Part shown: positions 20,105-58,865 of the stretch, one piece after another
Layout of the letters: every line of letters starts with the position of its first letter
How positions within the stretch are numbered: position 1 is the first letter of the stretch
IMG/VR virus record: IMGVR_UViG_3300022225_001767
DNA: 64,000 nucleotides
Source: a virus
Strand: one strand, 5' to 3'
Position numbers and translations under genes: made by a program
The notes under the pieces: model-generated
Databases searched by the model: none
Told to the model about the DNA's origin: nothing
Seen by the model: the letters and a program-made list of their open reading frames with translations, nothing else

Positions 20105-20293
20105 GTTCACAAAAGCGCTCGCTCCGAAATACGGGCAGCAGCAAGAATGGGTTTGCCCCCTTTGATCTCAACATGCTACAAGCATGACAGACAGCTAAAC
20201 ATCACATTTGCAATGTAACTTCATCAATAAGTCACTTGCTTTGATGTATTGAGATCCATCTTGTCAACAAGTGCAAATATTGAGGAAGTCAAA
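20105..20293 (+). ncRNA. Structured 5' leader A (pseudoknot-like family)
   Basis: Promoter TTGATT 20070 / TAACAT 20093. GATCTCAA 20164 pairs with TTGAGATC 20249, which lies in the loop of hairpin CACTTG 20233 / CAAGTG 20268. Confidence 0.55.
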
Positions 20294-20842
20294 ATGACCA
20301 AATTTAACCTTTCCACCCCCAACGGCCTGTCTGGTTTTCTAAAGAACCTTAAGCGTCAATTTACGCTGGCCAACATGGATATTCGCAAAACGAAAGACAG
20401 CAAGCTGCTTCATCGCGCAGCCGAAGCCATGGGGCTGGAGGACTGGCCCACATTGTCAGCGTCACTCACACCCCCTCTTAAGATCAATAACAGGACCGTA
20501 TCTGAGAGCAAACAGCGAGACGCAGAAGCGACACTAAAAGACTTACTTGAAAGTAACCAGCGTATCGAAAATGGTGAAGATGTTGATATCGACGACAGTA
20601 TATACGGCCGCTCAGTGTCTCGTATCGAGGTATTCTTCTCACTAGGCTCAGACAGGGATATTACGTTTACGGTTGCGGTTGGTGCTCGTGGTGAATTTGA
20701 TATAGAAAGTGCGAAAATTACCGTTCGCGGCTTTGATACCATTGGCATCGTTCAACCTGAAGGAGAAGCGCTCCTTTCGCTCTGTGATCTTTTTGAATCC
20801 AGAGTGGGATTTGAAGTCGATCGTTTTTTCTCAGGTAAGTAA
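20294..20842 (+). CDS. Protein with Glyoxalase_8-like N-terminal helical motif
   Basis: KDSKLLHRAAEAMGLEDWPTLSA; GAGG SD. Confidence 0.6.
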   Translation: MTKFNLSTPNGLSGFLKNLKRQFTLANMDIRKTKDSKLLHRAAEAMGLEDWPTLSASLTPPLKINNRTVSESKQRDAEATLKDLLESNQRIENGEDVDIDDSIYGRSVSRIEVFFSLGSDRDITFTVAVGARGEFDIESAKITVRGFDTIGIVQPEGEALLSLCDLFESRVGFEVDRFFSGK

Positions 20843-20852
20843 CGTGCTCATC

Positions 20853-20880
20853 AAAAAAGCCGCTTTTAAAGCGGCTTTTT
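20853..20880. terminator. Bidirectional intrinsic terminator
   Basis: AAAAAAGCCGC-TTTTAAA-GCGGCTTTTT. Confidence 0.8.
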
Positions 20881-20899
20881 ATTCTACATCAGGCTCAGA

Positions 20900-21157
20900 T
20901 TACTTCTTTATCGTTCCTCTTTTGCCTTTCTTTGTTGTTGTTGTTTCGTGTTCAGGCGGAGGAGGCGCAACATCGATAAGCATCGACTTATTCATCTGCG
21001 TTTCTGCTGAACCCATGTCAATAACGACTGGTGCGCCGTCATTCATAGCATCTGCGGCCAAATCGCCACCATTTACAGAGGTGGCGGCACTTGCTGCGGT
21101 TGAAGCAAAAGCGACGGCTGCAACCAAAAGAGTATTTTTAACTAAACGCGTTCGCAT
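20900..21157 (-). CDS. Small secreted protein with Pro/Lys-rich C-terminus
   Basis: Signal peptide ending ASA-A; AAGGA SD. Confidence 0.65.
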   Translation of the reverse strand: MRTRLVKNTLLVAAVAFASTAASAATSVNGGDLAADAMNDGAPVVIDMGSAETQMNKSMLIDVAPPPPEHETTTTKKGKRGTIKK

Positions 21158-21227
21158 GATAATATTTCCTTCTTTTTGGATTAAATATTTACAATAATAT
21201 AAAATGGACAGATGGAATTACGCCTTA

Positions 21228-21440
21228 CTACTTTTTAGACGCAGGTGGAAGTCGAGGTCCTTTGGGCTTTTTCTCTTGCTCTGTTAGTGGCGACGCCACG
21301 ATCAAGCTTAAACCAACCACGTCACGAGACACTCTACTTTCGTCACTAACAGCAACGCCTTTTTCTGACGCCGCACTGGCCGTCATACTCATCGTTAACG
21401 CTGAGGCTAAAAGCGAAACTTTTAGTACCGTTTTTCGCAT
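21228..21440 (-). CDS. Small secreted protein with Pro/Lys-rich C-terminus
   Basis: MRKTVLKVSLLASALTMSMTASA signal peptide; same layout as its neighbour. Confidence 0.65.
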   Translation of the reverse strand: MRKTVLKVSLLASALTMSMTASAASEKGVAVSDESRVSRDVVGLSLIVASPLTEQEKKPKGPRLPPASKK

Positions 21441-21712
21441 GTTCATCATCCTTTCTACTAATTGTATCAATGGGTTGAGATTTACTGCGCTCCTTAACAG
21501 GAGTAAATTTACAGTACGGAATATTTTTATCTAAGTCAACGTCTTATTTTGTGAAAATTTTAACGAATGCTCGCTAACCCCCGCCACCTAAGACTTCGCA
21601 TGGTCAAAAAAAACTAAACCAATGTCTAATGTACATTATTTGACCCACGACATATAATTGTGTATTCTCCTCCTATAGCGAGAAAACCCACCACTAATAA
21701 AAATGGAATATT

Positions 21713-22537
21713 ATGAAAAACACACTCTGTACGCTTATTTTAAGCTCGGTCGCGTTCGTATCATCAGTGAATGCAGAGCCGATCCTGGTACACGACTATC
21801 CTGAAGCAAAAAAGCTTTTTTATACGGAAACCAAGGTTGATCACTCTCTACCTAATGGTGGACAACGTGGGCATGATATTGCGGTTCGTACCGGAAATGG
21901 CAGTCACGGCGATTCATCCAATTTAAATTGGTTGAGCTACGATGGGAACCACAATCTTGATTGGTTCAAACATACGTTTGATTGGTCTATCACGCGTGAT
22001 GGAACTGACACCACTTATTCATTTGGTGGGACAACAGTGCAAACACAGTCTCTGGAAGGGGATTGGGACGCGCTTGGTATTTATTTTAACACCTCTGGCT
22101 GGTCAGGCTATTTCTTTGATAATGCCTACATCAACATGACGTTAGATACATGGAATGAAACGGCACTCATCGATCCTATCTCTTACAAGTCAAAACTTGG
22201 TAAGACAAAATTCATGGAGTTTACTGACAGCGATGAGCAGTGGATTGAGTCAGTTTCTGGTACCGCAACGTTTCACTGGAACGTCAAAGATTATTATTCA
22301 TATTACCATTGGAAAGAGAAATCTCCCAACGGCCGCCTTGCTATGTACTTCAAAGGCTATGACTACCTTGGCGCAGACTACACGTCGCCAGGCAACGACG
22401 CAGACATCCCCATTGACGAAACAGGCAACATCATTGAAAATCCAACGAATGTCGGCGCGCCTATGCTCGCCTCTGCGGGGCTGCTGATGCTGGGCGCTTC
22501 TTGGGTGAGACGACGAAAAAGTCTCATGCAAATGTAA
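21713..22537 (+). CDS. Exported protein with PEP-CTERM-like tail
   Basis: Signal peptide; TNVGAP + TM + RRRKS. Confidence 0.8.
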   Translation: MKNTLCTLILSSVAFVSSVNAEPILVHDYPEAKKLFYTETKVDHSLPNGGQRGHDIAVRTGNGSHGDSSNLNWLSYDGNHNLDWFKHTFDWSITRDGTDTTYSFGGTTVQTQSLEGDWDALGIYFNTSGWSGYFFDNAYINMTLDTWNETALIDPISYKSKLGKTKFMEFTDSDEQWIESVSGTATFHWNVKDYYSYYHWKEKSPNGRLAMYFKGYDYLGADYTSPGNDADIPIDETGNIIENPTNVGAPMLASAGLLMLGASWVRRRKSLMQM

Positions 22538-22543
22538 CCAGAC

Positions 22544-22570
22544 AAAAAACCACGCTTATGCGTGGTTTTT
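22544..22570. terminator. Bidirectional intrinsic terminator
   Basis: AAAAAACCACGC-TTAT-GCGTGGTTTTT. Confidence 0.8.
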
Positions 22571-22573
22571 GTT

Positions 22574-23293
22574 TTAGGCATTTACCATCCACTGCTTACG
22601 CACTTTTTTCCTTTTCCAAGTTCGTTCTAAGCACACGTACTTTTCATTAAACTCATTTGGCAACGCTGAAGCACCGCGCTTACCGCGAACGTTTGGCGCA
22701 TCAGGCTCCATCTTAAGGGCCTCAAGGCTCCGGCGCTCTGCCATTACCTTAGGGCGGCGATAACAGTACCCTGTTCTCACATAGCCAGGTTGATGCTTGA
22801 ACTTACTTAACCAACTGTTAAAACCAGACTCCCGTTCTCCAGGGAGCACGCCGCGATTATAAGGCGAACAATCGCTTTCCATCCATGCAGCCACTGACGT
22901 TAAGTGACCTCGCGGCCCCCATGGACGCGGCTTAGTAGGCTCAGGCAAGGGATCACCAAACTCAGTGGTTACCTTGGCGACTTCATAGAAGTCTTCGCGC
23001 GCATGAGGCACGAACTCCCTTGCTCTTAAACGAAAATAATACATCCTTTCAGACTCACCTTCTCGCGGCCTTAAAGGTGTCTCTCGCTTCCTAAGACGAT
23101 GCTTGCAATCGCTACCTATCGCCTGTTCGAGCGTTAAGTATCTTGCGTCACAGTGACGACACACATAGGCTTCTGAAGCGGTTGCTTTCCGTTTCACCGG
23201 GGAAGCAATGTATGCTGCCAAGTTTTCAAAAATGCGAACCCGTGTCGGCGTGCGCTCTATAATTTTAGGCTCATAAACAGGAACCTCGTACAT
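22574..23293 (-). CDS. Basic hypothetical protein
   Basis: 239 aa, AGGAG SD, CxxC and C-terminal RTWKRKKVRKQW. Confidence 0.75.
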   Translation of the reverse strand: MYEVPVYEPKIIERTPTRVRIFENLAAYIASPVKRKATASEAYVCRHCDARYLTLEQAIGSDCKHRLRKRETPLRPREGESERMYYFRLRAREFVPHAREDFYEVAKVTTEFGDPLPEPTKPRPWGPRGHLTSVAAWMESDCSPYNRGVLPGERESGFNSWLSKFKHQPGYVRTGYCYRRPKVMAERRSLEALKMEPDAPNVRGKRGASALPNEFNEKYVCLERTWKRKKVRKQWMVNA

Positions 23294-23425
23294 GATTTAT
23301 CTCCTAATGTAAAACTTCACATTCGGAATGTCATGCGTCCCTGTATGGCATGGTACTTAATCGGCATAATGCCTCCTTACTTAAACTTTAATTATTATAA
23401 CACCAATGTGTCAAAATACAATAAA

Positions 23426-23454
23426 TAAAAAGGGCAGATTATACTGCCCTTTTT
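23426..23454 (-). terminator. Intrinsic terminator downstream of the porin gene
   Basis: AAAAAGGGCAG-ATTATA-CTGCCCTTTTT. Confidence 0.75.
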
Positions 23455-23469
23455 GGTTCAACTGTAAAT

Positions 23470-24639
23470 CTAGAATACAAAATTAACCGCAACGCGCGCC
23501 AATGTGCCATCATTATCGTCTGACACATCATCATTGTATCGAGACACATCAGCCTTTAATGCCACACCGCTATCCAAATCATAGCGCAATGCCACAGATG
23601 TAATACTGTAATCTTCAACCTGAGAAGCCTGCGCACCTAATGCGACGCTTGTTAAGGTTGCAGCCACGCTGTCTGGTAGCCCTGAACCAGCGATATCATT
23701 GATAAGTGACGCGTTATTGATAGACAACTCAGACTCGAAGCGTTCATACGTAATAGACGGTGTCCACTTACCATAACGCGCACCGGCGGTGACATAGTAT
23801 GCCGTATCATCATTGCTAAAACTATCATCAATCATCACTTTAGTTAGCTCTGCGCCTACAAAATACTGATAGTTGTCCCACATCACGCTAGCGCCCAGGA
23901 ATTGACCTTCATCATCTTCCATTTCAAGCGAGTCCGATAGCGCGACTAAACCCAGCTCTCGCATAGTTGAGAAGCCACCTGCCAGCAAGGCCGCCTGCTC
24001 ATCACTTGAACCTGCAAGATCAAGGGTGGCATCTGTTCGCCCAACCACCCCACGGACGGTCAAGCTTTCATTACTCGCCTGCAATGATACTAACAGCGTG
24101 TTTTCTCCACGAAGGTCCGCACCAAAGGCGTCACCTTTAAATTGCCCTGCCGCCACATCAGTCAGGATATCCCAACCGCCCAGCATGTTGCTGTAGCTCA
24201 CTTTTACACCATCAAGGTTATTGAAAGGCACATTGTAGATTGCATTCGGTGCGGTTACCCAATGATAGGTATAACCCACATCCAGTGACGCCGAATAGGC
24301 AAATAAAGGAAGACGAGAGCGGCCCGCGGTTACGGTCCAGTTGTTGTTAACTTCGTAAGAGAGGTAAGCCCACTCAAACGCCACATCAAAGTCATCTTCA
24401 CCACGCGATAACACCTGGGCTGTTGCCGTTATCTTGTCTGATACGTCTGATGAAAATTGTAACGCAAACAAGCTGTCGTTTTGAAAATCGATATTGTCAT
24501 CAAAATTCAACACAACATCATCACTGCTGGCGATACCGCCAACAACGTTACCGAATCCATTGATCGTCACATCCGCCTGCGCACCCGCTGCGGCCAACAT
24601 AACACTCGCTGCTAACAATGATTTTTTCATGTTCTTCAT
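23470..24639 (-). CDS. Outer-membrane beta-barrel (porin)
   Basis: Signal peptide; INGFG, EWAYLSY, GRSRLP; terminal Phe (VNFVF). Confidence 0.8.
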   Translation of the reverse strand: MKNMKKSLLAASVMLAAAGAQADVTINGFGNVVGGIASSDDVVLNFDDNIDFQNDSLFALQFSSDVSDKITATAQVLSRGEDDFDVAFEWAYLSYEVNNNWTVTAGRSRLPLFAYSASLDVGYTYHWVTAPNAIYNVPFNNLDGVKVSYSNMLGGWDILTDVAAGQFKGDAFGADLRGENTLLVSLQASNESLTVRGVVGRTDATLDLAGSSDEQAALLAGGFSTMRELGLVALSDSLEMEDDEGQFLGASVMWDNYQYFVGAELTKVMIDDSFSNDDTAYYVTAGARYGKWTPSITYERFESELSINNASLINDIAGSGLPDSVAATLTSVALGAQASQVEDYSITSVALRYDLDSGVALKADVSRYNDDVSDDNDGTLARVAVNFVF

Positions 24640-24650
24640 TTTGCTGTCCC

Positions 24651-25064
24651 CTACTTGGTCAATACGACTTTAACATCACCCGTGACGCTTGATGCATCGA
24701 CGTAAGAGATGGCGTTTTTATTGTCTTTAACGAGATTGATGACGGCGGCGTCATCACTTACTTGTTTTGGCGCCGATCCTTTTCCGGTAAACACCTGTTT
24801 TGCCCAATAGCTGGCGACCTGTGAGCTGCTACGATTTAGCAACCCCGTATTAAAAGCATCCGTCGTCGTCGCTGTTTCTTGCGTGATAGGGAGCACCTCC
24901 TTACCATCGCTAAATTGGCCCGCCTTACCCAAGAACATACGCGCTACATCTTCAGCAGTAATTTCTGCTGTGTTTTCAGGGTGAACAATGACAGCCACTT
25001 CAGCAAATGCAGAGACGGCAACACTCGCACTAAGCGATAACGCTAATACTACTTTTTTAAGCAT
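24651..25064 (-). CDS. Small periplasmic binding-protein-like ('phosphate ABC transporter substrate-binding'-like) porin partner
   Basis: AEVAVIVHPEN…MFLGK…YWAKQVFTGKG…P…AISYVD. Confidence 0.8.
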   Translation of the reverse strand: MLKKVVLALSLSASVAVSAFAEVAVIVHPENTAEITAEDVARMFLGKAGQFSDGKEVLPITQETATTTDAFNTGLLNRSSSQVASYWAKQVFTGKGSAPKQVSDDAAVINLVKDNKNAISYVDASSVTGDVKVVLTK

Positions 25065-25257: not shown

Positions 25258-25424
25258 ACTTCGAGTTGGCATAGCCGTAAAATCTTGAATGGGCACTCGG
25301 CCCGCCGCCTCACATTGGCAAAAGAGTACACAGCAACAGCACATAGTATAAACACAACATGCGTTGTCGTGGTGGTGAGTGAGGTAACCCGTAAAGTAAA
25401 AAGACAACGTTTTTGGAGTGTTAT
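25258..25424 (+). ncRNA. Structured 5' leader B (pseudoknot-like family)
   Basis: Promoter TTGCCT 25224 / TATTAT 25246. CCTCAC 25308 pairs with GTGAGG 25379, in the loop of CGTTGTC 25362 / GACAACG 25403. Confidence 0.55.
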
Positions 25425-25970
25425 ATGATGCATTGCCCACCTATTCTTGGCTTCCTTTCGGTGGCCCACTTTCGAGATGAAACAAAAAAGCTGTCAGAAC
25501 ATCTCAACATCCCCTTAAACAAACTGAGAAAGAAAATTGCCAATCGACACGGTTTCAAAGGCATTGAACCCTACGAGGCTCAACTTTCGCTTTTCGAAGC
25601 GCAGGATGTTGACGCCATACCGCCTTATCGTATTGGCGGAGGGAAAATTGTATACCTGATCTGCTATGAAACGCTAAGACACACATCATCAGGTTACGTA
25701 TGGAATGAGAACAAGAAAGGCATTATGGCCGAGTTAAGCTCCATGATGAACTTCAATCACAACAACGTACACCGTGATAACATTCAACTCCTCATCACTC
25801 GTGTCGAGGTGCCATGGGATATGGATCATGACGAGATTACAGACACGTTGTCTAATTTTGAGGAGCGCATTATGTTGGAGCATAAGGGATTTCGTTACCC
25901 GCTGACTCAGAAGGGGTTTAAAGACAGTGTCGCTGCTGTTAACGCGGACAATGATGATGAAATTGATTGA
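25425..25970 (+). CDS. Protein with Glyoxalase_8-like N-terminal helical motif
   Basis: PLNKLRKKIANRHGFKGIEPYEAQL; GGAG SD. Confidence 0.6.
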   Translation: MMHCPPILGFLSVAHFRDETKKLSEHLNIPLNKLRKKIANRHGFKGIEPYEAQLSLFEAQDVDAIPPYRIGGGKIVYLICYETLRHTSSGYVWNENKKGIMAELSSMMNFNHNNVHRDNIQLLITRVEVPWDMDHDEITDTLSNFEERIMLEHKGFRYPLTQKGFKDSVAAVNADNDDEID

Positions 25971-26012: not shown

Positions 26013-26028
26013 TCGGAGTAATATTACC

Positions 26029-28237: not shown

Positions 28238-29008
28238 CTATTTCTTGCGACGCATTGTTGCGCCAGCAAACACCATCAGTGCACCGAATGCGCCTACCAA
28301 TGGTACATTGGTGAACTGAGCTTGCGCGACATTTTGAGCTTCCTGTAAGGAAAGCGATGTGTCGATGTTTAACAGATTGCGATTTGCTTCATTGTCCTCA
28401 ATTAACAATGTCATGGTCGGGTCAAAAACATAACCGTTGTTGGCCGTGCCATAATCACGATCAGAGTCCAAAAATATATGCAAAGACACCGCGTCTTCAT
28501 GCAGCATCCCTGAAGCAGTATAGCGATAGGGTTCATTGATTTGCGTAAAGCCAGTGTTAACAACGTCACCAATATAATTACCCGCCGCATCTTTTTGAAG
28601 CACGCGCGCACGGGCGTCATCTGTTGCACCTGACCACATCCATGCATCTAACTTTATCGTCACTACACCACTGCGGAAAAATGACGCGTTGTATTCAGAC
28701 AAAGACGTTAAATCGAATGACTGTGTTACACTATTAAAAGCACTACGACCACCATAAAAATAACGTCCCTCTTTATCAAAGGGATGATTGGCTAACGTCG
28801 TGGTGTCGATAAACTGCGTCGTTTGTGTTCCAGCGGCAAACTGCCAGCCTGTTGGCTCTGTGCTAATGTTCCCGGCATAACTTCCGTTATCGTCCAAAAA
28901 CAAGCCGTTTTCAACCAAATTTTCTGTTTCTATTAGGTTAGCCGCGTTGGCGCTCATAGCCATCCCTATTGCTAGCGCGCCGATGGCTTTAAATGTTGCC
29001 TTTAACAT
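28238..29008 (-). CDS. Exported protein with PEP-CTERM-like tail
   Basis: Signal peptide; TNVPLVG + TM + RRKK; related to 13842. Confidence 0.8.
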   Translation of the reverse strand: MLKATFKAIGALAIGMAMSANAANLIETENLVENGLFLDDNGSYAGNISTEPTGWQFAAGTQTTQFIDTTTLANHPFDKEGRYFYGGRSAFNSVTQSFDLTSLSEYNASFFRSGVVTIKLDAWMWSGATDDARARVLQKDAAGNYIGDVVNTGFTQINEPYRYTASGMLHEDAVSLHIFLDSDRDYGTANNGYVFDPTMTLLIEDNEANRNLLNIDTSLSLQEAQNVAQAQFTNVPLVGAFGALMVFAGATMRRKK

Positions 29009-29069
29009 GAAATTGTTCCTATTCAACATGTCTTAAAAATAACATAAAACTTTGCAATACGTGTGCCAA

Positions 29070-31416: not shown

Positions 31417-32439
31417 TCAATCCTTGCGCTTACTGCTCTCGTAGTGCGCTTTACAGCGAATGTCACTTGCATCAAGGTACAACCCTGCGCCCACATAAGG
31501 CACGCCTAATCTAGTGATTATCACGCTCGCATTATAGTGGTCGTAGTATAAATCATAAGGTTCATAAAACGCAGTCGCATTCCCCTTTTTATTAAAGCCT
31601 GCTCGGGATATGAGGGTCTCCACCACCGTTTCATTCAGGTCTTTTTCGAACAGTTCAGGATGCGCCTTCATCATCACGTCACTCAGAGACTTTAGCGTCT
31701 CACGCGGGTCGGATGCATCATGGTCAATGCCAATAACCTTACAGTCACCTTCACCAAAATTAACGGCCAGCGGATCACCCATGCCCTCAAAGTTGACTCC
31801 TACTCCTGCCTGAACCACCAAATGGCTCATTAGTTCAGGTAAATCTTTTGTTTTTCGGGTAAAACTAAAATACGATGGGATCCTATCCAGCAAATCAGGG
31901 ACACTGCTTAAATTGAAGGCCGCGCCTGTCAATGGTGATGTGGCGTCGAAGAAATAACGGTAGCCTTCAACTTCATCACGGCGAAGATCCTTTTTAATCT
32001 CTGCCTCATACTCAAAAGCATGCAGTTCTTTTTCAAACTTGTAATGAAAGATGTCTGGATACATGTAAAGCATATCAAGTACGCCAACTTCTACACCTTG
32101 TTCACGTACTACATTGACGCTTGCGTCATCATACTCACGATGGTGACGAAACAGAGAAACATTGAAGTATTGGACTTGGTAATGCGCAAACATTTCATTA
32201 GTGTTGTGAAACCCCAACATGTCAGCGGCGAGCTTATCGGCTGCGCTTTGCTTTATGCTATCACGCGCTTTTTGGCCTACCGCACGCGCAACACTGTCAC
32301 CCAGCGATTCCTTTTTAATGGTATGCTTAAATAGACCGACAACTTGCTCTAACGTCAGTGACGCTCGTAAACTTTCTCTTAACGCAGCTAGGTCTTTTTC
32401 GTTTTGGATTACTTTTCTTAATGGTATTTCGTTTGACAT
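31417..32439 (-). CDS. Protein with Glyoxalase_8-like N-terminal helical motif
   Basis: IKQSAADKLAADMLGFHNTNEMFA; GAGG SD. Confidence 0.65.
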   Translation of the reverse strand: MSNEIPLRKVIQNEKDLAALRESLRASLTLEQVVGLFKHTIKKESLGDSVARAVGQKARDSIKQSAADKLAADMLGFHNTNEMFAHYQVQYFNVSLFRHHREYDDASVNVVREQGVEVGVLDMLYMYPDIFHYKFEKELHAFEYEAEIKKDLRRDEVEGYRYFFDATSPLTGAAFNLSSVPDLLDRIPSYFSFTRKTKDLPELMSHLVVQAGVGVNFEGMGDPLAVNFGEGDCKVIGIDHDASDPRETLKSLSDVMMKAHPELFEKDLNETVVETLISRAGFNKKGNATAFYEPYDLYYDHYNASVIITRLGVPYVGAGLYLDASDIRCKAHYESSKRKD

Positions 32440-32594
32440 GATATCATCCTCTTGATAGCAGTGTGTTGTGCCCCGTTTCCATCACACTGCTTGACGATGT
32501 AACGACAAACGGTGTCATAAAAAAAGTTGATGTAACTATTCATAGTGCGTTGCGCCAAGGGGCGGCGTGGTGCAAAACCACATCTCAAAGAGAC
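32440..32594 (-). ncRNA. Structured 5' leader C (pseudoknot-like family)
   Basis: Minus-strand promoter TTGACT 32629-32624 / TAATAT 32606-32601. GCCCC (32563-32559) pairs with GGGGC (32474-32470), in the loop of GCAGTGTG / CACACTGC. Confidence 0.55.
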
Positions 32595-39949: not shown

Positions 39950-40149
39950 TGTGAGATGCACTTGCTTTGCATGTGTCAGTCATCTCATGGGGCAGCTCCC
40001 CTCTACGACCCACCCGCTCGCCGGGTTACGCATAAGCGTCACTGGAAAACCGCCAGCAACACCCTTGATTGACACCGGACATTATCATGGTGGCAAGGAG
40101 GAACGGGTCGGACTCTACCATGCCACAACATTGATAGGACGGTACCCTT
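39950..40149 (+). ncRNA. Structured 5' leader D (pseudoknot-like family)
   Basis: Promoter TTGACT 39916. CGACCC 40006 pairs with GGGTCG 40105, in the loop of GTGGCA 40090 / TGCCAC 40121. Confidence 0.55.
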
Positions 40150-40821
40150 ATGCAAATTACATTTTCGCTTCGCAACAACAATCTTATTATCGACAGCTCA
40201 CAGAGCTTAGATGACTTTTCCGCCGCATTCGCTGACCTTACAAAGCTGAAAAAGACGCACGTCAAAAGTACGATAAGCAAAACCTTAGGTTTCAGCCATA
40301 TCAAGGCGCTTGAGAGCGCACTTACACCATACATTAGCGCCCCAGATGTTCGCCTTGCCGATAAAACGATAAAGGGGCTTCAAGATCTTTACTGGTGGCT
40401 TGATGATAACATCGACATGAACACTGAGATGTATTTTGATAGCAATGGTGAGGTTGACTCAAAAGCGTTGCAGGACATGTTATCGCCTTTGTTTGATATG
40501 ATGCGACAACAACAGGCATCAGGTAAACCTATCACGAACCGTGCAGAGGAAATCACCGCTAAGCGCGATGGTATACTTTCCGACATGACGAAACATGCCC
40601 TTCAGCATGCGGATGTCGACAACGAAGCGCAGCTAGAGCAAAAACATTATTACGCGGTTCAAGATGACGTTGAAGCACTCAACCGAAAATTATTTAACCA
40701 TGATGATTATGGGAAAGCCTTGGCGCTACTTGAACGTGAGGGCATGCAAGATTTTGCGAACCTTCTTGCCGAGATGACAGAAACGAAAACGGCAGAGGAT
40801 CACATCGCGCATACACTGTAG
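40150..40821 (+). CDS. Protein with Glyoxalase_8-like N-terminal helical motif
   Basis: LKKTHVKSTISKTLGFSHIKALESAL. Confidence 0.6.
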   Translation: MQITFSLRNNNLIIDSSQSLDDFSAAFADLTKLKKTHVKSTISKTLGFSHIKALESALTPYISAPDVRLADKTIKGLQDLYWWLDDNIDMNTEMYFDSNGEVDSKALQDMLSPLFDMMRQQQASGKPITNRAEEITAKRDGILSDMTKHALQHADVDNEAQLEQKHYYAVQDDVEALNRKLFNHDDYGKALALLEREGMQDFANLLAEMTETKTAEDHIAHTL

Positions 40822-40948: not shown

Positions 40949-41174
40949 ACCTGCTCGACCCTACACTGCGGTGCGTGGTAACAGCAGAGGGAGGCTCCAG
41001 ACCTTCGTCGCATCTCAGGTGCAACAGTACACAATACCGTCGCACTCATGGCTAATACTGGCAACGTCTTCACTTAATAAAGACAACACACCCCTTTTTC
41101 GACATAACGTTACTTGACGAGTCGCAATTGGAACGAGATGCACAATGATGATTACGACTCACTTGGAGAATGAT
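40949..41174 (+). ncRNA. Structured 5' leader E (pseudoknot-like family)
   Basis: Promoter TTGACA 40914 / GATAAT 40937. GCATCTC 41010 pairs with GAGATGC 41135, in the loop of GAGTCG 41119 / CGACTC 41155. Confidence 0.6.
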
Positions 41175-41825
41175 ATGTCTACACCTGTTACTATCTTGGG
41201 CGCTGATCGCGCCACGTTAATGAACAACACCCGACGCGCACTGGAAGGATTCCAAAAAGGACGTCCTGTTACGCGTGATGCATTGGTGAGAAAAGCGCTG
41301 GCCACCATCTTAGGGCAAGATAATGAGCACCTCCCTACCGCGGACTTCTCAATTAATAATGCCTCACTGGAGACACGCTTGCGTAACGCTATGGCGCCAC
41401 TTACGTTTTTGCAAGACTGGGGCACTGGGGATGACGAGTACCTTGATTTAAACTTTGAAGCGCGCGCGTGGGATGCCAATGCAGAGAAGGACGACATTAC
41501 CGTCGACTACCGCATCAGCTTCCATATTCCGGGTAAATACGCCTATTTCATTATCGGTAAAAATTATGGCAGTGGGATGGTCGGTGCCATTGAAATCCCG
41601 CTCTCACACCTACCTTACGCGCCGATGTTATTGCTTGAAGGCAGCCGTGATGCGCAGTGGCTTGACGAGTCAGAGATTTTTGTTGGCATCGAAAAGATGT
41701 TGGATGTTTACCATGCTATTTGCGCCGATCCATTGCTAAAAGAAGTTTTTATCGATAACCGCCCTGCACTTTCTCTTAAATCCGCGAAAGATGCAGTCAC
41801 AACATCGCACAGCGAGGTGCGTTGA
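41175..41825 (+). CDS. Protein with Glyoxalase_8-like N-terminal helical motif
   Basis: RDALVRKALATILGQDNEHL; GGAG SD. Confidence 0.6.
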   Translation: MSTPVTILGADRATLMNNTRRALEGFQKGRPVTRDALVRKALATILGQDNEHLPTADFSINNASLETRLRNAMAPLTFLQDWGTGDDEYLDLNFEARAWDANAEKDDITVDYRISFHIPGKYAYFIIGKNYGSGMVGAIEIPLSHLPYAPMLLLEGSRDAQWLDESEIFVGIEKMLDVYHAICADPLLKEVFIDNRPALSLKSAKDAVTTSHSEVR

Positions 41826-50781: not shown

Positions 50782-50965
50782 GCTTCACAGTGATGTGCGG
50801 CAAACACAGGTGAGAACCTAGCAGCCTTCCGGCGCCATGCGCTTGCAAATATCATTAACGATGAACATTACGCTATCATTTAGCAATCCACGTTTACATT
50901 ATGAACTGTAGCGTGTCATCACCCCGGGAAGGCAAGAAAAAGACACGCAATACGGAGAATGATGT
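50782..50965 (+). ncRNA. Structured 5' leader F (pseudoknot-like family)
   Basis: Promoter TTGACT 50747 / CAAAAT 50770. GCCTTCC 50824 pairs with GGAAGGC 50927, in the loop of GCGTGTC 50911 / GACACGC 50942. Confidence 0.6.
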
Positions 50966-51778
50966 ATGAACACACCTAAGTTATTTTTTACCACGCTTGT
51001 TAATGCTCTGCGCACTAAAGATGATGCAAAGGCATTGCGTCAGCACATGAATGACGTGAACGCCAAGCACTTCGGAAACACCCAAAAACCCGCCAAATTG
51101 TTCGCTTATTTCGCTGACATGATGGGCACATCAAACGCAAACAAGCTATCAGCGTTACTTGATGAAAAAGTCAGCGACAATTTTGACGATCCTGCAACCT
51201 TCATCAGCACACTACTTAGCCCCATGATGTCGCGTGTTGCGCGTGTTGGCGAAGTGGGTAGAGTGATTTCAGGTAGCGACCCAGCCCCTAGCTGGTTTAT
51301 GAACCTTCCATTATTAACCATAAAAACGACGGGATACACCGACGATCCTGAAAAAACCACCTGCTATCTTGGCGTTATTATCAACGTTGAATACTCTAGG
51401 GCCTTCGGTAAACTTCTCGTTGATGCGACATTAAAACTGTTTGATGATGCTGATCTCTCTGCCTGTGATATTGGGTACGAAGTAGAACTTGAAACGCAAA
51501 ATGACATCACCGAATACTTTAGCAGCGAGATGGAAATGGGATTTGGTCAAGCGACAAGCATCTCACTTCATGAGGGCGGCAAATTATTCTCCTCGTTAAC
51601 TGGATTAACAACCTCTACGTTTGATGAAGGTGACGACCCCATTATTCCCTTTCTCGTCAGCGGGATTGGCCATGAGCTCATTCGAACATTGTCGCCGGTG
51701 TGCGATTTAACGTTAAATTGCGGTGACATCGCATGCCAACAGATGTTTTTAGCATCCGGTAAAATAGAAAAACGTTAA
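50966..51778 (+). CDS. Protein with Glyoxalase_8-like N-terminal helical motif
   Basis: QKPAKLFAYFADMMGTSNANKLSALL; GGAG SD. Confidence 0.6.
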   Translation: MNTPKLFFTTLVNALRTKDDAKALRQHMNDVNAKHFGNTQKPAKLFAYFADMMGTSNANKLSALLDEKVSDNFDDPATFISTLLSPMMSRVARVGEVGRVISGSDPAPSWFMNLPLLTIKTTGYTDDPEKTTCYLGVIINVEYSRAFGKLLVDATLKLFDDADLSACDIGYEVELETQNDITEYFSSEMEMGFGQATSISLHEGGKLFSSLTGLTTSTFDEGDDPIIPFLVSGIGHELIRTLSPVCDLTLNCGDIACQQMFLASGKIEKR

Positions 51779-52719: not shown

Positions 52720-52887
52720 GTCGCCGCTAATAGCGACTGCCTCCTCCGCCCTAACGGGTAAGGCCCATATTAGCAAGTTACACCGACCTGATTTTTATTG
52801 AAACTACTGTCACCAGCGGTTCTCCAATAACAGGCGCAAGGGAGGAACGAGCTGTTAAACTGAACCGAAAACGGAAACAGTACAATC
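52720..52887 (+). ncRNA. Structured 5' leader G (pseudoknot-like family)
   Basis: Promoter TTGCAT 52685 / TAATAT 52708. TCCTCC 52742 pairs with GGAGGA 52841, in the loop of CGGTTC..TAACAG / CTGTTA..GAACCG. Confidence 0.55.
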
Positions 52888-53817
52888 ATGAAATTCACTA
52901 CTTCATTTATCAATGCGGCCCTTACACGTCTACGTAACAGCATGACGCTTCATACCTCACGCGATCGTGTTTCCGCTGCCATTAAGCAGATGGCCTACAA
53001 AGCCAATGATGAGGACAAAACACAACTCGATACGCTACGCCATCAACTCGATACGCTTACGCTTGAAGATGCACCGATGGACAGAAAGCGCGCGCAAGAA
53101 ACATTGGCAACGATCCTTACCGGTCAGAATTATGCCCTTTTGAAGCGCGATGCAGATGCGCCACTCTCGCCCACGCACAATGATTTTAATGCGGCGAAGG
53201 GTATGTTGAACAACGCATTGAGCATGATCAATGATATGCAACATTATGAGCGAGAATCTGAACGCGCTTACAATAAGCTACTTAAATTGTTAACCGACAA
53301 TGCAGGTGATGCAGCTGCTGTAAAAGGAGATGCGCTTTCACCATGGACGAGCAATGCAGCCCTGTGCGCTTACTACCGCGACAAACTCATTGAACACAAA
53401 TCGTCGTTTAAATTCCGCATTAAAGACCTAGACGGCCCCATGTTTAGCCGTTCAGGCAGTGATGCCTATGAGGTTAAGGTTTCTTTCCTTTTTGGTGGCC
53501 ACAGCATCAATGTTCTTTGGGAAGTTAAAAACAATGAGTATGCTGAGTTTGACGATGAGTTTGTTTCTGTTGAACTTGATGGCGACGACATTGAATCTGT
53601 CACATCCAGTGAACCGTGCAACAATGGGCATTATGTTTTTGACTTATTCAACGACATAATGTCAGATTACTTACGCGACAACGTTCGGTTAGGTGACGAT
53701 GACGTGTGCTCTCCTGATGAAGCATCACGTGACGCCGAGAGGGAACTCGCTTTGCAAGCGTTGACAATGGGTCACCGTTGGTTCGAGAAGCAAAAAAAGA
53801 GAGAAAAACACTCGTGA
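52888..53817 (+). CDS. Protein with Glyoxalase_8-like helical motif and acidic C-terminal domain
   Basis: MDRKRAQETLATILTGQNYALLK. Confidence 0.6.
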   Translation: MKFTTSFINAALTRLRNSMTLHTSRDRVSAAIKQMAYKANDEDKTQLDTLRHQLDTLTLEDAPMDRKRAQETLATILTGQNYALLKRDADAPLSPTHNDFNAAKGMLNNALSMINDMQHYERESERAYNKLLKLLTDNAGDAAAVKGDALSPWTSNAALCAYYRDKLIEHKSSFKFRIKDLDGPMFSRSGSDAYEVKVSFLFGGHSINVLWEVKNNEYAEFDDEFVSVELDGDDIESVTSSEPCNNGHYVFDLFNDIMSDYLRDNVRLGDDDVCSPDEASRDAERELALQALTMGHRWFEKQKKREKHS

Positions 53818-54440
53818 ATTTAATAAAAGAGGTGGCGGCATTGTCGCCACTTCGCCGTAATCAACAAATCATGTCGTTCTACCTACTGTTTGTCAATGCG
53901 TTGCTTGGCGCAGCAATTGTCATGCTGTACGTTGATTTATTTAATGCAGATGGACTAGTGCTTAAAAACTATGCGCTGTCAGTACTTGGCCTTGCTATTT
54001 TCATTCCTGCCTTAGGGAAAATGGCTAAAGAGCATCCTATGAAAACCTTTCATATCGCCATTGGTTTTGAGGTGCTCGCTTTTGTTTTCTATATGCTTAC
54101 AATCTATGACGTTTTTCCTCACGTGATATTGCCGATTGCGACAATTGTTACGTATTCTTCAAATATTATTATGTCGCCCATACTCAACCAAACCACCAGC
54201 ATTGTTACCGCAGGTTGCGCTGACTATTCGTTACTTAAATCAAAGCTTGATATGCTCTATACCGCAATAGGTGCGGCGGTAGGTGCCTGCTTTGTGATCT
54301 TTGACGTCCACCTTACCGTCGTCATGGTAAGTTACGCGTCAGCATTGATTATGGCGCGCTATTATCGCCACAAAGTGTTAACTGAAATATATAAGGACAC
54401 GCCAGAAAACATCCTTGATGGCGACGCCTCAAAAGCATAA
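53814..54440 (+). CDS. Polytopic membrane protein (about 6 TM helices)
   Basis: GTG start overlapping the previous stop; hydrophobic helices. Confidence 0.7.
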   Translation: MNLIKEVAALSPLRRNQQIMSFYLLFVNALLGAAIVMLYVDLFNADGLVLKNYALSVLGLAIFIPALGKMAKEHPMKTFHIAIGFEVLAFVFYMLTIYDVFPHVILPIATIVTYSSNIIMSPILNQTTSIVTAGCADYSLLKSKLDMLYTAIGAAVGACFVIFDVHLTVVMVSYASALIMARYYRHKVLTEIYKDTPENILDGDASKA

Positions 54441-54445
54441 AAAGA

Positions 54446-54493
54446 TTGCATTTAGCCTCTCTTTTTGAGACAATAAAAACGTCAACACAACAG
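54446..54493 (+). promoter_or_regulatory. Repeated promoter + GTCAACACAACAG leader
   Basis: TTGCAT 54446, TGAGACAAT, GTCAAC 54481. Confidence 0.85.
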
Positions 54494-54503
54494 GAGAAAC
54501 TTC

Positions 54504-55004
54504 ATGCCAACATCTGTTTATCCGGCAGAGCACCCGGTAGCGATACAAGATAGCTTCGCATTGCCTTTGCGTGTCGTCAGCGAGCAGGTTGTCGCGTTAG
54601 ATAAGATTGCTACCATACTGGCAACGAATCTGTCGAAAAGCGACTTGCTGAGTGAAACGTGTATCACCGCACACCGCACTGCTATCACTAATATGCTGTC
54701 ATTCCGCGACGCCCTGATGGCGGCCGAGGATGCCGTGGGTTACCGCGACCAGAGTCGCCTGCTTACTGGCATTAGCGAAGCGCGAATTGTGACCGACCCG
54801 AATCCACCAGCATATACGGAAGAAGAGGAGTTTGACCTTCTCATTGAACAAGACATTCGTTTTCGCACCGTGTTTTCTGAGCTTGAGCGATTCAAAGACA
54901 CTTCACTTGTTGCGCCTGACTATCAAGACGCAATCACTGAGCTTAGCGCGTTCGTTTGCCAACACATTCGCTCAGCGAAGTATATCGTTCAAGCCTATCT
55001 TTAA
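54504..55004 (+). CDS. Hypothetical protein
   Basis: 166 aa, AGGAG SD. Confidence 0.75.
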   Translation: MPTSVYPAEHPVAIQDSFALPLRVVSEQVVALDKIATILATNLSKSDLLSETCITAHRTAITNMLSFRDALMAAEDAVGYRDQSRLLTGISEARIVTDPNPPAYTEEEEFDLLIEQDIRFRTVFSELERFKDTSLVAPDYQDAITELSAFVCQHIRSAKYIVQAYL

Positions 55005-55047
55005 TTAATGGAGGGCGGCACATCGGCCGCTCTCAAGAGGACTTCTT

Positions 55048-55305
55048 ATGTCAGATACACTATTTAAGTCGAGCTACTACGATCAGTACTTTACGGAAGA
55101 TTGCGTTGAACGTGCGCTTGAGGAATATGAAAGCTTCTGCAAACGTGACAACTTGCCATTTGAGATCGGTGACGATGTGGAACACGCCCTCGAAGCGCTT
55201 AAAATGGAACGTGATGCAGGTGAGGACGCGATGCTAAACACCGTGATGTACCACGCCATTGAAATCATGGGCATGGAAAACCCTAATGATGATGACGATG
55301 ATTAG
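55048..55305 (+). CDS. Small, highly acidic protein
   Basis: 85 aa, very D/E-rich, GAGG SD. Confidence 0.75.
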   Translation: MSDTLFKSSYYDQYFTEDCVERALEEYESFCKRDNLPFEIGDDVEHALEALKMERDAGEDAMLNTVMYHAIEIMGMENPNDDDDD

Positions 55306-55348
55306 TTTAATGAGTGATTGCTGGTTCCGACAGCGATAGCCACGACAA

Positions 55349-55693
55349 ATGAACTCAATTCATCGCAAACAAGATAAGGCCCGGGTCGACACCATTGTCA
55401 TCCCAGCCTATTACATCCCATTGTCGAGTATACGTCGCCTGTATAAGCGATATGCTCACCCACAGCATGACACGGGCTCATTGTGCAACATCATCGAGAA
55501 CGTGGCATTACTCGCCTCTGAGCTTAAGCAAACACAGGTGGAGATAGAGCACCTTCAAGCGCGCGTCGTTGGCGACATGACACGTATATCGGCGTTACAA
55601 CAACACTACCACCTTGTACTTAATCTCAAAGCGCACGTTCATCAATTTGGTAGCGCACGGGAAACCACGTTAGCGCTGACGATGCTTGGCTAA
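55349..55693 (+). CDS. Hypothetical protein
   Basis: 114 aa ORF. Confidence 0.6.
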   Translation: MNSIHRKQDKARVDTIVIPAYYIPLSSIRRLYKRYAHPQHDTGSLCNIIENVALLASELKQTQVEIEHLQARVVGDMTRISALQQHYHLVLNLKAHVHQFGSARETTLALTMLG

Positions 55694-55706
55694 CCACATT
55701 GACATG

Positions 55707-55752
55707 TTGACATCACTCACAGAATTTGAGACACTGACATTGTCAACACAAC
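55707..55752 (+). promoter_or_regulatory. Repeated promoter + GTCAACACAAC leader
   Basis: TTGACA 55707, TGAGACACT, GTCAAC 55742. Confidence 0.9.
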
Positions 55753-55763
55753 AAGGAATACAC

Positions 55764-56189
55764 ATGCTTTCACATACCCCTATTTATAAAAACGACGACA
55801 AGCAAGCCGTACTTGGTTATGAGCTGTCATTTGCGCTACGCGTTGGTAACGTCAGCCTTAATGTGCTGTATGAAGAAGACGAAGATGGCTCCGCGTCAAT
55901 TGTCGTCAAAAGCGCCTACAAGCCACTGAACTTGACCGTTGATGTTGTTTTTGAAGATAAGCCAACACCCACCATCCAAAAAAATGACGACGAGCAAACA
56001 GCGACCGTTAATTTCCACGATTGCAGTGTTGTAGCAAGTTGGAAAAGGTTGCCTTCATGCACTGACGGCAACGGCTTTATTCAAGTTGAAATTGTTGAGA
56101 CCGACATTGATGGCTCTAAGGCTGTCCTCGCTGAAGCAGGATTAAGCGGTTTAGGTATTTTGCAACTTGATGGGGTGCGCCTGCTATGA
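55764..56189 (+). CDS. Hypothetical protein
   Basis: ATG after AAGGA SD. Confidence 0.75.
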   Translation: MLSHTPIYKNDDKQAVLGYELSFALRVGNVSLNVLYEEDEDGSASIVVKSAYKPLNLTVDVVFEDKPTPTIQKNDDEQTATVNFHDCSVVASWKRLPSCTDGNGFIQVEIVETDIDGSKAVLAEAGLSGLGILQLDGVRLL

Positions 56190-56605
56190 GTCTCTTAGAT
56201 CGTGTTTTGTCATCAAAAATCACACCGGCACCGCTGCCTGAAATAGCGGCGAAACTTGGGGCGTCTTACGATGATATTGAGGACCTCAACTTGCCTTTCT
56301 ATGACATCGCCACATCGAGCTATCCAGACAGTTACATCATTGTAAAAACGGCGCTGTATACGCATCAAAATGCTTCATGTATGATGCTGTCTAGCGATTT
56401 ATATGATGAGAACGGTAACGGTGATCATGTTGATTCATTGCTTGACGCAGAATCACCGTGCAGCTTCGCTTCTGGACTCATGGAGACATGGACGCTTGAT
56501 CTCAGTCTCAGTAAAGCGCGGATTGACGCCATCCGAGACATTGTGAAAGCAACGGTTGCCGCCAACCTTGACGGTGAGCTCGCAGAAGACTTTAAAAATT
56601 GGTAA
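56186..56605 (+). CDS. Acidic hypothetical protein
   Basis: ATGA overlap with the previous gene. Confidence 0.7.
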   Translation: MSLLDRVLSSKITPAPLPEIAAKLGASYDDIEDLNLPFYDIATSSYPDSYIIVKTALYTHQNASCMMLSSDLYDENGNGDHVDSLLDAESPCSFASGLMETWTLDLSLSKARIDAIRDIVKATVAANLDGELAEDFKNW

Positions 56606-56657
56606 TGATATGGCGAGAGCGCGTGCTTTCGCCACATCTCTTAAAAGGAAACTTATC

Positions 56658-56855
56658 ATGTTTAAAGAAGGTGAAAAGGTGCGTTTTATCAAGGCGCACG
56701 GCTCAATGAACGCTCACTTGAAAGCCCTAGAAGGACATGTTGGCACTGTATCATGTGACAGCTACTCGTATGGAAAAACGATGGTTCGATTCAACGATGC
56801 ACCCATGAAGCCTCAATTTAATATTGCCAATGAAAGGCTCGTCGCTGTGACGTGA
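56658..56855 (+). CDS. Small SH3/KOW-like hypothetical protein
   Basis: MFKEGEKVRF…GHVGTV…VRF; AAGGA SD. Confidence 0.6.
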   Translation: MFKEGEKVRFIKAHGSMNAHLKALEGHVGTVSCDSYSYGKTMVRFNDAPMKPQFNIANERLVAVT

Positions 56856-56865
56856 CACTAAAACA

Positions 56866-56911
56866 TTGACAACGCCCACATGTTTTGAGATACTTGATTT
56901 GTCAACACAAC
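56866..56911 (+). promoter_or_regulatory. Repeated promoter + GTCAACACAAC leader
   Basis: TTGACA 56866, TGAGATACT, GTCAAC 56901. Confidence 0.9.
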
Positions 56912-56925
56912 ATGGAGCGGCACTC

Positions 56926-57522
56926 ATGCCAACATTTACTATTTACCAAGAAACCGATGCACTGAACCCACGCGAAGCTGAGAACAAAGGCCGAATGCTG
57001 TGCAAACATCGTCGCTATATATTAGGCGATGTTGATGCTTCTGGTGATCTTTCAGATATGATTTCTGGGCATCCTGATTTTGATTCAGTATCTGCCGACT
57101 TTGACCGCCAAGATCCTGCATCATTGTTTCGACTGGCTCAAGGTTTAGGCATTATTGCCGTCTACTTGGAACTGCATCTTTACGACCACTCTGGCATCAC
57201 CATGTCAACGATCCCGTTCTCATGCGCTTTTGATAGCGGACAGGTCGGAGTCATTTACATGACGCACAGCGACATGGACACCTATTATGGCGGCACTGAA
57301 GCTCACCACTGCAACCAAGCTAAAGAACACATGAAAGCCGAGGTTAAAGCGTACGACGCCTTTATTTCGGAAGACACTTTCGGCTTTCTTCTGGTCGATG
57401 ATGACGGCACGATGATTTGCGAACGTTCTGGCTATGAAGGCTGTGACATCGAGTCTAATGGTATGCTCAATGACATTGATGCGCAATATCACGAGTTAGT
57501 GCGCAAGTCCGTAAACGCCTAG
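56926..57522 (+). CDS. Mobile-element-type hypothetical protein (LYDHSG…FSC.FDSGQVG motif)
   Basis: Motif I recall from uncharacterised phage/plasmid proteins; GGAG SD. Confidence 0.7.
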   Translation: MPTFTIYQETDALNPREAENKGRMLCKHRRYILGDVDASGDLSDMISGHPDFDSVSADFDRQDPASLFRLAQGLGIIAVYLELHLYDHSGITMSTIPFSCAFDSGQVGVIYMTHSDMDTYYGGTEAHHCNQAKEHMKAEVKAYDAFISEDTFGFLLVDDDGTMICERSGYEGCDIESNGMLNDIDAQYHELVRKSVNA

Positions 57523-57585
57523 GCACCATTTTCTTTTTTTGACTAAACCACAGGGCCGCGGTCAGCGGCCTAATAAGGAATTGCT

Positions 57586-57945
57586 ATGACGCAAAAAACA
57601 AGCTACATCAAAACCCAGCTGTCACGCCTAGAAAACAAAAACAGCGATGGCCTTAAACCTTCTGTTCAACTGTATGGAGCCGTATCCGGCAAGACGAACC
57701 AACTTAGCGTTTCGCCAACGCAACTTGATGCCATCTCAACCGTGTTAATGATGGACGATTCAGGCGATGAAGCAAGCGCCTCAGCGCAAGAAAATGTGGG
57801 CAACGCCATTGCACAAATGCTTGGACTAAAGACAGGTGCTGATGGCCGCTATGTTACCAACCGTGGGGCCAAAACCGCACGTGGGTTGGGCGCAACCGTA
57901 CTGCAAACGATGGCGGAATCATTAAAATCTACCGCCGAGTCCTAA
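57586..57945 (+). CDS. Hypothetical protein
   Basis: 119 aa, AAGGA SD. Confidence 0.7.
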   Translation: MTQKTSYIKTQLSRLENKNSDGLKPSVQLYGAVSGKTNQLSVSPTQLDAISTVLMMDDSGDEASASAQENVGNAIAQMLGLKTGADGRYVTNRGAKTARGLGATVLQTMAESLKSTAES

Positions 57946-57966
57946 TTAATAATCAATCAACAACAC

Positions 57967-58005
57967 AGAAGCGAGTTTCCCCCGCCATAACCTCGCTTCT
58001 TTTTT
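57967..58005 (+). terminator. Intrinsic terminator
   Basis: AGAAGCGAG…CTCGCTTCT followed by TTTTT. Confidence 0.7.
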
Positions 58006-58040
58006 ATTGACATTTTAATCAATACTGGTATTATTAACAC

Positions 58041-58238
58041 AAGTTTCGAGAGCGTTACGACGCTATGACCGAAATGTGTGTTGCAGCACACGCCGCCTAC
58101 CGCCCTTTGGGTGTTTGTTTTATACAGACCGGCCACTCTTGCACCATTGAATGCACACTTACGTTTATAATCGTTTACCGCGTGAGGCTTCAAGGTTAAT
58201 TGGTAGGGCTTGAACATTCACATTCGGAGAACGCTATT
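58041..58238 (+). ncRNA. Structured 5' leader H (pseudoknot-like family)
   Basis: Promoter TTGACA 58007 / TATTAT 58029. CCTACC 58096 pairs with GGTAGG 58202, in the loop of GTGA..TTCAAG / CTTGAA..TCAC. Confidence 0.55.
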
Positions 58239-58865
58239 ATGAGCAACCCATTACGCCACCTTGCCACCGCCATTGTTACTGCTTGTCAAACTAAAGACAA
58301 CGCAAAACACGTCAAACAGAGCACCGTCCTTGATGTTCTTACTAAGCATGAAGGCTACAGAAGTATACAGGCGCGAGACAACGCAACTGCTACGCGTAAC
58401 GATGACAAACCACTGCCATCGGACGTTGTCGCATTGCGAGGGCTTCTTTACGCCAACTATCCACATTCTGACTTACTTCCCATAGAACTTGGTGAAGCCA
58501 TCACATTTAAAGGCTCCCTCGTTTCGCACCCTGATTGGGGATGCGATGCACCCTTCGCCGTCATGTGGGATTTACTCAGTAATGAACTACATGCAGCGGT
58601 CGATGAGCTTGAGCGCTGGAACCGCTTGTGCGACCGCCTTGAAGACGTTATTGAGTCTGGCACTGACGCTATAAACGAAGTGTTGATTGCTTTCCCACCA
58701 CGTATTGCGCAGTTTCTTCACGCAGAGTTTGATGAAGTGACCGACGACACCATGTTGCCTGTTAAACAGGCTGCGGAGAAATATCGCGCCCTAGAGCGCT
58801 TTCAATCTGATGTTGAGAGTGTCACGGATGCGCTTCGCAATGCCCGTTCGGCACAAGACAGATAA
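58239..58865 (+). CDS. Protein with Glyoxalase_8-like N-terminal helical motif
   Basis: VKQSTVLDVLTKHEGYRSIQA; GGAG SD. Confidence 0.6.
   Translation: MSNPLRHLATAIVTACQTKDNAKHVKQSTVLDVLTKHEGYRSIQARDNATATRNDDKPLPSDVVALRGLLYANYPHSDLLPIELGEAITFKGSLVSHPDWGCDAPFAVMWDLLSNELHAAVDELERWNRLCDRLEDVIESGTDAINEVLIAFPPRIAQFLHAEFDEVTDDTMLPVKQAAEKYRALERFQSDVESVTDALRNARSAQDR

Follow-up and report, generated by a model that had tools for sequence, protein, structure and literature searches.

The DNA analysed here is a 64,000-nucleotide (nt) stretch of the IMG/VR virus record IMGVR_UViG_3300022225_001767 (the window), which holds mostly unknown genes, plus SSB, SspB and a few enzymes. Between positions 20,105 and 58,865 lie eight dispersed modules, in each of which a leader RNA precedes a gene (20294, 25425, 32439, 40150, 41175, 50966, 52888 and 58239, named for the position at which the coding sequence begins) whose product resembles near its N-terminus, with very different degrees of certainty, the Pfam domain PF20066 (Glyoxalase_8). 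We conclude that the leader is a genuine cis-regulatory RNA that is absent from the catalogues and goes together with an unstudied domain; its fold, the conservation of that fold, the hidden ribosome-binding site (RBS) and the link to one domain are all apparent from sequence comparison. The initial annotation of this DNA had proposed an undescribed RNA-protein-domain module, and that proposal has held up: searches with the RNA only and with the protein only converge on the same loci in other plasmids, and no match was found in Rfam or in the literature searched.

The eight open reading frames (ORFs) and eight complementary strand pairs listed in that annotation are all in place, with 71–125 nt between the paired strands, and the remote promoters it described agree with sigma70-like hexamers that give predicted leaders of 155–226 nt. 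It had also located the 3' strand of each pair in a hairpin loop, which is so in all eight leaders; however, the 5' strand sits in a loop as well, so the pairing is a loop-loop kiss, and the single-pairing topology overlooked both a second pseudoknot and a stem hiding the Shine-Dalgarno (SD) sequence. The leaders conform to a layout defined on other plasmids (see below): a hairpin, P1, is followed by a 3-bp helix, P2 (GCC with GGY), that surrounds the 5' kiss strand, usually together with a small hairpin; then come GAA, a strand complementary to the P1 loop (the second pseudoknot) and, after a variable linker, a long 3' hairpin that carries AAY and the 3' kiss strand in its loop. Leader 1 (20105–20293, plus strand, like all but leader 3; predicted -35 at 20070) kisses through 20164–20171 and 20249–20256 and has its SD in the lower stem. 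Leader 2 (25259–25424) has P1 at 25291–25303, a second pseudoknot ACTC/GAGT and a kiss of 25308–25313 with 25379–25384; in leader 3 (32440–32594, minus strand) 32563–32559 kiss 32474–32470, and both pseudoknots covary in two orthologs. The kiss joins 40006–40011 to 40105–40110 in leader 4 (39951–40149; second pseudoknot weak, 3 bp), and 41010–41016 to 41135–41141 in leader 5 (40949–41174), which has the longest linker of the set. Leader 6 (50782–50965) pairs 50824–50830 with 50927–50933, its lower stem takes in both the SD and the start codon, and its second pseudoknot is weak; leader 7 (52720–52887) combines P1 at 52720–52737 and a kiss of 52742–52747 with 52841–52846 with a 7-bp second pseudoknot; leader 8 (58042–58238) has P1 at 58076–58091 and a kiss of 58096–58101 with 58202–58207. 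Kiss and 3' hairpin are thus present in 8/8 leaders, and the second pseudoknot is clear in five and weak in those of 20294, 40150 and 50966. CGCCGCC does recur, as had been noted, 5' of the 5' strand in the leaders of 25425, 32439 and 58239.

In comparison with shuffled leaders, a simple loop-pairing statistic is weak for single pairings (p 0.02–0.07 for seven leaders, with 25425 missed), but the summed score of the eight exceeded all 300 shuffles. With a two-pseudoknot descriptor, written after the data were seen, six leaders scored higher than any of the 82 remaining upstream regions in the window, that of 50966 came second to one control, and that of 20294 reached p 0.06; the automatic parse of 40150 and of P1/P2 in 20294 differs from the parse read off the alignments. 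The eight leaders have little sequence in common, and their kiss strands cross-pair more poorly than they pair with their cognates. One could envision a different trans-acting factor, a host or plasmid protein or a small RNA, that acts on all leaders as a regulon; at least eight copies co-reside both on the window plasmid and on a Variovorax megaplasmid, and other window genes appear to be under one common antisense regulator. However, so little shared sequence, the poor cross-pairing and the occurrence of single copies on small plasmids and in diverse hosts make such a factor improbable.

The evidence for an RNA family comes from 14 ordinary PF20066 loci on plasmids (the foreign set), whose leaders show the above architecture throughout. 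In the second pseudoknot, double changes occur in 6/6 pairs among 13 foreign leaders (0/500 shuffles), and 47/48 kiss pairs are Watson-Crick (permutation p 5e-5), the kiss strands having been picked by alignment position and the AAY anchor, not by complementarity; AAY stands ahead of the kiss strand in 18/26 leaders. A covariance model built from the foreign leaders alone placed 4 of its 16 matches at E ≤ 10 on exact window sites, weakly (best E 0.23), with leader 7 as its best match. When RNA models were run on whole plasmids, 6/7 new matches at E < 0.05 lay 5' of a PF20066 gene or operon, including one protein with an internal domain (L039) and one MATE-PF20066 operon with the domain in its second gene (L031); a match at E 0.02 (L064) lies inside a coding region, and three PF20066 matches on W02 and W08 have no RNA-model match. 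A further match, L006:3961-4023 (E 0.03), faces an annotated gene on the other strand, is not followed by a PF20066 gene and is probably due to chance. The Variovorax megaplasmid NZ_LR594667.1 (L015, L032, L036, L039, L042, L044) carries at least 8 modules, some of them in tandem and one with the domain at residues 115–147. Rfam 15, including its riboswitch, radC, STAXI, PK-repZ, c4 and type III antitoxin families, gave no match to any window leader at E ≤ 5 or to ten foreign loci at E ≤ 1, and the literature searched describes no such leader RNA. We conclude that the eight window leaders are diverged members of an RNA family that precedes ordinary PF20066 genes in Pseudomonas, rhizobia, Legionella and Variovorax. 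This defines an uncatalogued regulatory RNA whose plasmid hosts include Pseudomonas, rhizobia, Legionella and marine bacteria, and to which the window adds eight diverged, co-resident copies and an SD-hiding stem that has been put to a statistical test.

Compensatory changes, which the initial annotation had suspected from the eight leaders, are truly present among orthologs of 20294, 32439 and 52888. In 20294 relatives that range from 55% identity to remote, the pairing is kept in the same place with its letters changed (GATCTCAA/TTGAGATC, GGTTTCGA/TCGAAACC, GGTTCCGA/TCGGAACC and GCCTCG/CGAGGC); the 32439 family has GCCCC/GGGGC, GTCCC/GGGAC and GACCTC/GAGGTC, and the 52888 family TCCTCC/GGAGGA and CCCTCC/GGAGGG. 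Within ortholog pairs conservation is higher in the N-domain than in the C-domain, and in the 5' RNA domain it is no lower than in the linker; leader sequence is conserved inside each ortholog family and not across families. Leaders of the 20294 family carry an additional 5' hairpin (window 20105–20145 and orthologs), with the loop GAAATAC, that is strongly conserved and that the other leaders lack. Directly 3' of 20294 orthologs in five loci is a conserved 120-aa gene (L002:10561-10923, L005:8337-8699, L006:2024-2389, L008:2409-2774, L010:10702-11067), absent from the window, which is possibly a second gene under the same leader.

On local folding, the 3' hairpin extends downward into a bulged stem in which the SD is paired, and often the start codon too; in 21/30 leaders at least three of four SD bases are paired. 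We matched positions −12 to +3 with each leader's own mirror strand and, by permutation, with the strands of other leaders, and the RBS paired best with its cognate strand in the window (p 0.005), in orthologs (p 0.002) and in foreign leaders (p 0.0008), whereas 55 control genes showed no cognate pairing (p 0.70). Because the RBS is paired by the leader's own strand, the RNA is part of the mRNA and works at the initiation step. Two candidate alternatives found no support: the 5' kiss strand as anti-SD (p 0.23), and the anti-SD strand folding back onto the 5' domain (p 0.73). No conserved alternative partner for the anti-SD strand was found, which fits stabilisation of a single fold.

This anatomy bears on two further explanations. 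The suggestion of the initial annotation that the RNA serves as guide or antitoxin would have it released separately into a ribonucleoprotein, for which one could cite the variable linker and the fact that type III antitoxins are pseudoknots adjoining their gene. Here, however, the RNA is continuous with an SD and start codon that lie inside the fold, and a hairpin whose base pairs these elements implies translational control in cis rather than a guide; in addition, tandem repeats are absent, the linkers are short (~17–70 nt), poorly conserved and match local DNA no better than shuffles do, and one leader compared with phages gave short, chance-level matches. We regard this possibility as very unlikely. 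Alternatively, the leader might work without a dedicated partner, either as a folding timer, with ribosomes loading before the 3' hairpin and kiss form, or as a thermometer whose bulged stem is melted by heat. A bulged, SD-hiding 3' stem is a hallmark of RNA thermometers, and PF20066 is found fused to Clp_N, the ClpX zinc finger and Lon-N; neither device, however, accounts for the near-exclusive tie to one protein domain or for two conserved pseudoknots, and we give the idea little credence.

With respect to the proteins, the initial annotation had proposed an N-terminal Glyoxalase_8 pattern shared by all eight. This is significant for 20294; the others are not significant singly, and no window protein reaches the Pfam cut-off for PF20066 (23.7 bits), the best being 20294 at 13.2 bits, with no score for the other seven. 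P0023, a remote relative of 20294, scores 19 bits, and 10/11 of its tblastn matches on plasmids are annotated as glyoxalase superfamily protein; hhalign gave 20294 a probability of 92% against a profile of 20 foreign PF20066 domains. Among 91 ORFs that profile ranks the eight proteins 1, 2, 3, 5, 9, 12, 19 and 27, in the expected register, a rank sum below each of 200,000 draws; taken singly, the other seven have probabilities of at most 13%, and a hidden Markov model (HMM) of the 20294 family did not pick up their N-termini. Protein 20294 (20294–20842; 182 aa) joins a three-helix PF20066 domain at residues 9–58 to an acidic alpha/beta C-domain. Next in rank are 50966 (50966–51778; 270 aa), with a PF20066-like N-terminus (HMM E 0.005 among window ORFs), 52888 (52888–53817; 309 aa), with PF20066-like helices at residues 44–86, and 32439 (31417–32439, the only one on the minus strand; 340 aa), which ranks fifth and has a PF20066-like motif at residues 62–88. 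The N-termini of 40150 (40150–40821; 223 aa; rank 9), 58239 (58239–58865; 208 aa; rank 12) and 25425 (25425–25970; 181 aa; rank 19) are weakly PF20066-like, and 41175 (41175–41825; 216 aa; rank 27) is the weakest match. Judged by these comparisons, 20294 belongs to PF20066 and the other seven are supported collectively.

The AlphaFold model of the 20294 N-domain consists of three helices (9–25, 35–45 and 51–58; pLDDT 89.5), and the ESM Atlas, by features and structure, groups 20294 with PF20066 proteins that are fused to VOC, Clp_N, the ClpX zinc finger or DUF3471, or that stand alone in phages; a search there with protein 50966 gave no usable match. Fold searches with the N-domain found no clear solved-fold match (best Z 3.9, best Foldseek E 1.1, weak helix-turn-helix-like rows), and the literature searched holds nothing on PF20066. 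Should the domain bind RNA, the stand-alone proteins, of 58–65 aa and many of them from phages (ESM Atlas rows for 20294–20842), could work in trans. The N-domains of all eight proteins are basic (net +2 to +4) and the C-domains acidic (−9 to −17), and the cargo fused to PF20066 at large is mutually unrelated: VOC, pentapeptide repeat, Lon-N, Clp_N, ClpX zinc finger and unknown acidic domains. PF20066 is a widespread domain with a misleading name, for which our analysis supplies a testable function.

We propose, with a probability of about 0.5, that the leader acts in cis and that the basic three-helix PF20066 domain binds its own leader and represses translation. Each leader would control the gene or operon behind it. 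Its 5' domain is compact, the P1 loop pairing with the strand just downstream and P2 presenting a strand of 5–8 nt that the loop of the 3' hairpin kisses, and the SD, often with the start codon, is paired at the base of that hairpin; the lower stem would be weak enough to breathe, so that a little protein is made, until the PF20066 domain binds the folded leader, locks the 3' hairpin in its OFF state and stops its own synthesis. Domain and leader would together form a portable dosage-control cassette fused to many unrelated cargo domains, and the eight copies on the plasmid have probably diverged into separate cognate pairs. Such binding would explain why the RNA tracks the domain across unrelated cargo, why the domain needs neither the N-terminus nor the first gene (its internal position in L039 and its place in the second gene of L031 are what one would expect of a diffusible feedback effector), why basic N-domains sit on acidic proteins, and why leader sequence is kept within ortholog families and not between them. 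The initial annotation had also raised autogenous translational control, and the anatomy fits it, the RBS being paired by the cognate strand; the protein as effector is our inference.

Several observations weigh against this proposal. Co-occurrence and co-divergence are also expected from shared descent; seven of the eight proteins lack individually significant PF20066 membership; no solved fold speaks for RNA binding by the domain, and foreign PF20066 domains are just mildly basic (0 to +3); the start sites are predictions; and the conserved unpaired bases (GAA after P2, and the AAY before the kiss strand) could make a ligand pocket. The last point would suit a translational riboswitch for a small molecule or ion, with the PF20066 domain part of the response rather than the effector. 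Two domains, a variable linker and a long-range pseudoknot are the layout of the ZTP riboswitch, the SD is located in a stem, conserved unpaired bases are common to the foreign leaders, and some downstream genes are of detoxification types (MATE, VOC, pentapeptide repeat). However, few bases are common to the eight window leaders and the foreign set (the foreign model finds four, weakly), each ortholog family retains its own sequence, and no alternative pairing was found for the anti-SD strand or the 5' kiss strand, although switches of the stabilisation type need none. The cargo domains share no evident pathway and are mutually unrelated, so one shared ligand is disfavoured, and we consider a riboswitch rather unlikely; were a ligand the effector, the leader would be a new riboswitch class. 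Returning to autogenous repression by the PF20066 domain, we put forward tentatively, as a possible but doubtful extension, that PF20066 binds RNA, a role so far unrecognised, and makes orthogonal pairs with double-pseudoknot leaders, the eight copies not cross-reacting and the fused C-domain, whether protease-type, drug-binding or acidic, tuning the binding. If so, these proteins would regulate translation as one-component systems, and nature would offer in them a toolkit of RNA-protein switches that work independently. With the domain as effector, specificity could be tested directly on the eight natural variants that one replicon carries.

With regard to the replicon, similarity searches found no close relative of the window among phages or plasmids, and no relative came out of two GTDB scans or two viral scans. 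On pAMCP48-600, a 604-kb plasmid of Alteromonas mediterranea that has been termed a chromid (PMC5217437), there is a distant relative of protein 32439, and metagenome contigs as long as 447 kb encode protein 52888; because of these two we infer that the window is akin to a megaplasmid of the Alteromonas type. Neither the RNA model nor the protein profiles gave a match on pAMCP48-600, though a leader is present there by inspection, and so these tools are insensitive to such diverged copies. Type IV CRISPR genes (Csf1, Csf3, Cas6) lie at L003:1-2658, ~7 kb from a 20294 ortholog, and pAMCP48-600 is reported likewise. Metatranscriptome contigs span 5 modules; they are uninformative on starts, strand and level, and may contain DNA. 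In two marine samples window 57914–58041 is swapped for 739 other bases, with similarity back at 58041, a single base away from where leader 8 is predicted to start; this hints weakly that the module is bounded by the start site. GTCAACA directly follows 39 promoter-like sites in the window, and the module genes are not of that type; the initial annotation had them lack the GTCAAC leader, but the 20294 leader does contain GTCAAC (20263), within its 3' hairpin and not at the start site. At 18038–18329 is a gene-free unit with two hairpins, each showing the reverse complement of the GTCAACACAAC leader common to ~39 promoters; it is likely a master antisense RNA with a layout like that of P1 c4. 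Scattered on the minus strand (6158–6868, 13842–14570, 16333–17052, 18344–19021 and 28238–29029) are similar secreted-looking proteins with signal-peptide-like starts, some of them clearly paralogous.

Several known systems resemble the PF20066 leaders in part. The ZTP riboswitch also places its long-range pseudoknot next to the SD; unlike it and other pseudoknot riboswitches, the PF20066 leaders have no Rfam match, no common pathway and few universally conserved bases. The repZ leader of IncI/IncB plasmids likewise combines long-range loop pairing with an SD-hiding stem, and in repZ the SD is opened by the pseudoknot, which requires a leader peptide and an antisense RNA; in the PF20066 leaders, by contrast, the kiss goes to an apical loop, the gene is not an initiator, and Rfam has no match. 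In type III toxin-antitoxin systems (ToxI, CptI, TenpI) a pseudoknotted RNA stands directly before the cognate protein gene, whereas the PF20066 leader is one non-repeated unit continuous with the SD, with no terminator before the gene, and no window protein has a Pfam match to a ToxN/CptN/TenpN-type nuclease. Cluster 630,527 of a recent preprint (bioRxiv 10.64898/2026.10.21.760802) is a possible counterpart, described as an unnamed motif before genes called glyoxalase; the genes named in the passage on it are glyoxalase, flavin monooxygenase and NmrA-like, with PF20066 unmentioned there.

Like autogenous operators, the leader is a structured element at the initiation site of an operon encoding its putative regulator. 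The leaders of uS15-rpsO, the uS4-alpha operon and bL20 are pseudoknotted, lie at or just before the initiation site and respond to a small basic protein of the same operon, and that of bL20 pairs a long-range pseudoknot with an irregular hairpin (PMC10931766); by analogy, the proposed binder here would also be a small basic protein acting on a pseudoknotted leader at the initiation site of its own operon. Unlike those proteins, PF20066 is non-ribosomal, its leaders show no evident rRNA mimicry, and it has multiplied on plasmids, joined to arbitrary cargo. In gp32 of T4 and RB69 (PMC535899), also the product of a mobile-element gene, the structured operator has diverged in sequence with its structure similar, and the C-terminal domain can modulate binding; gp32, however, is a single-stranded DNA-binding protein, and the two phage proteins cross-repress, whereas a separate domain of 50 residues is proposed here. 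We propose that PF20066 leaders work like the control of uS15, uS4, bL20 and gp32, yet belong to none of those families; if the domain is the effector, they would extend autogenous control, as a portable cassette, beyond ribosomal and replication genes.

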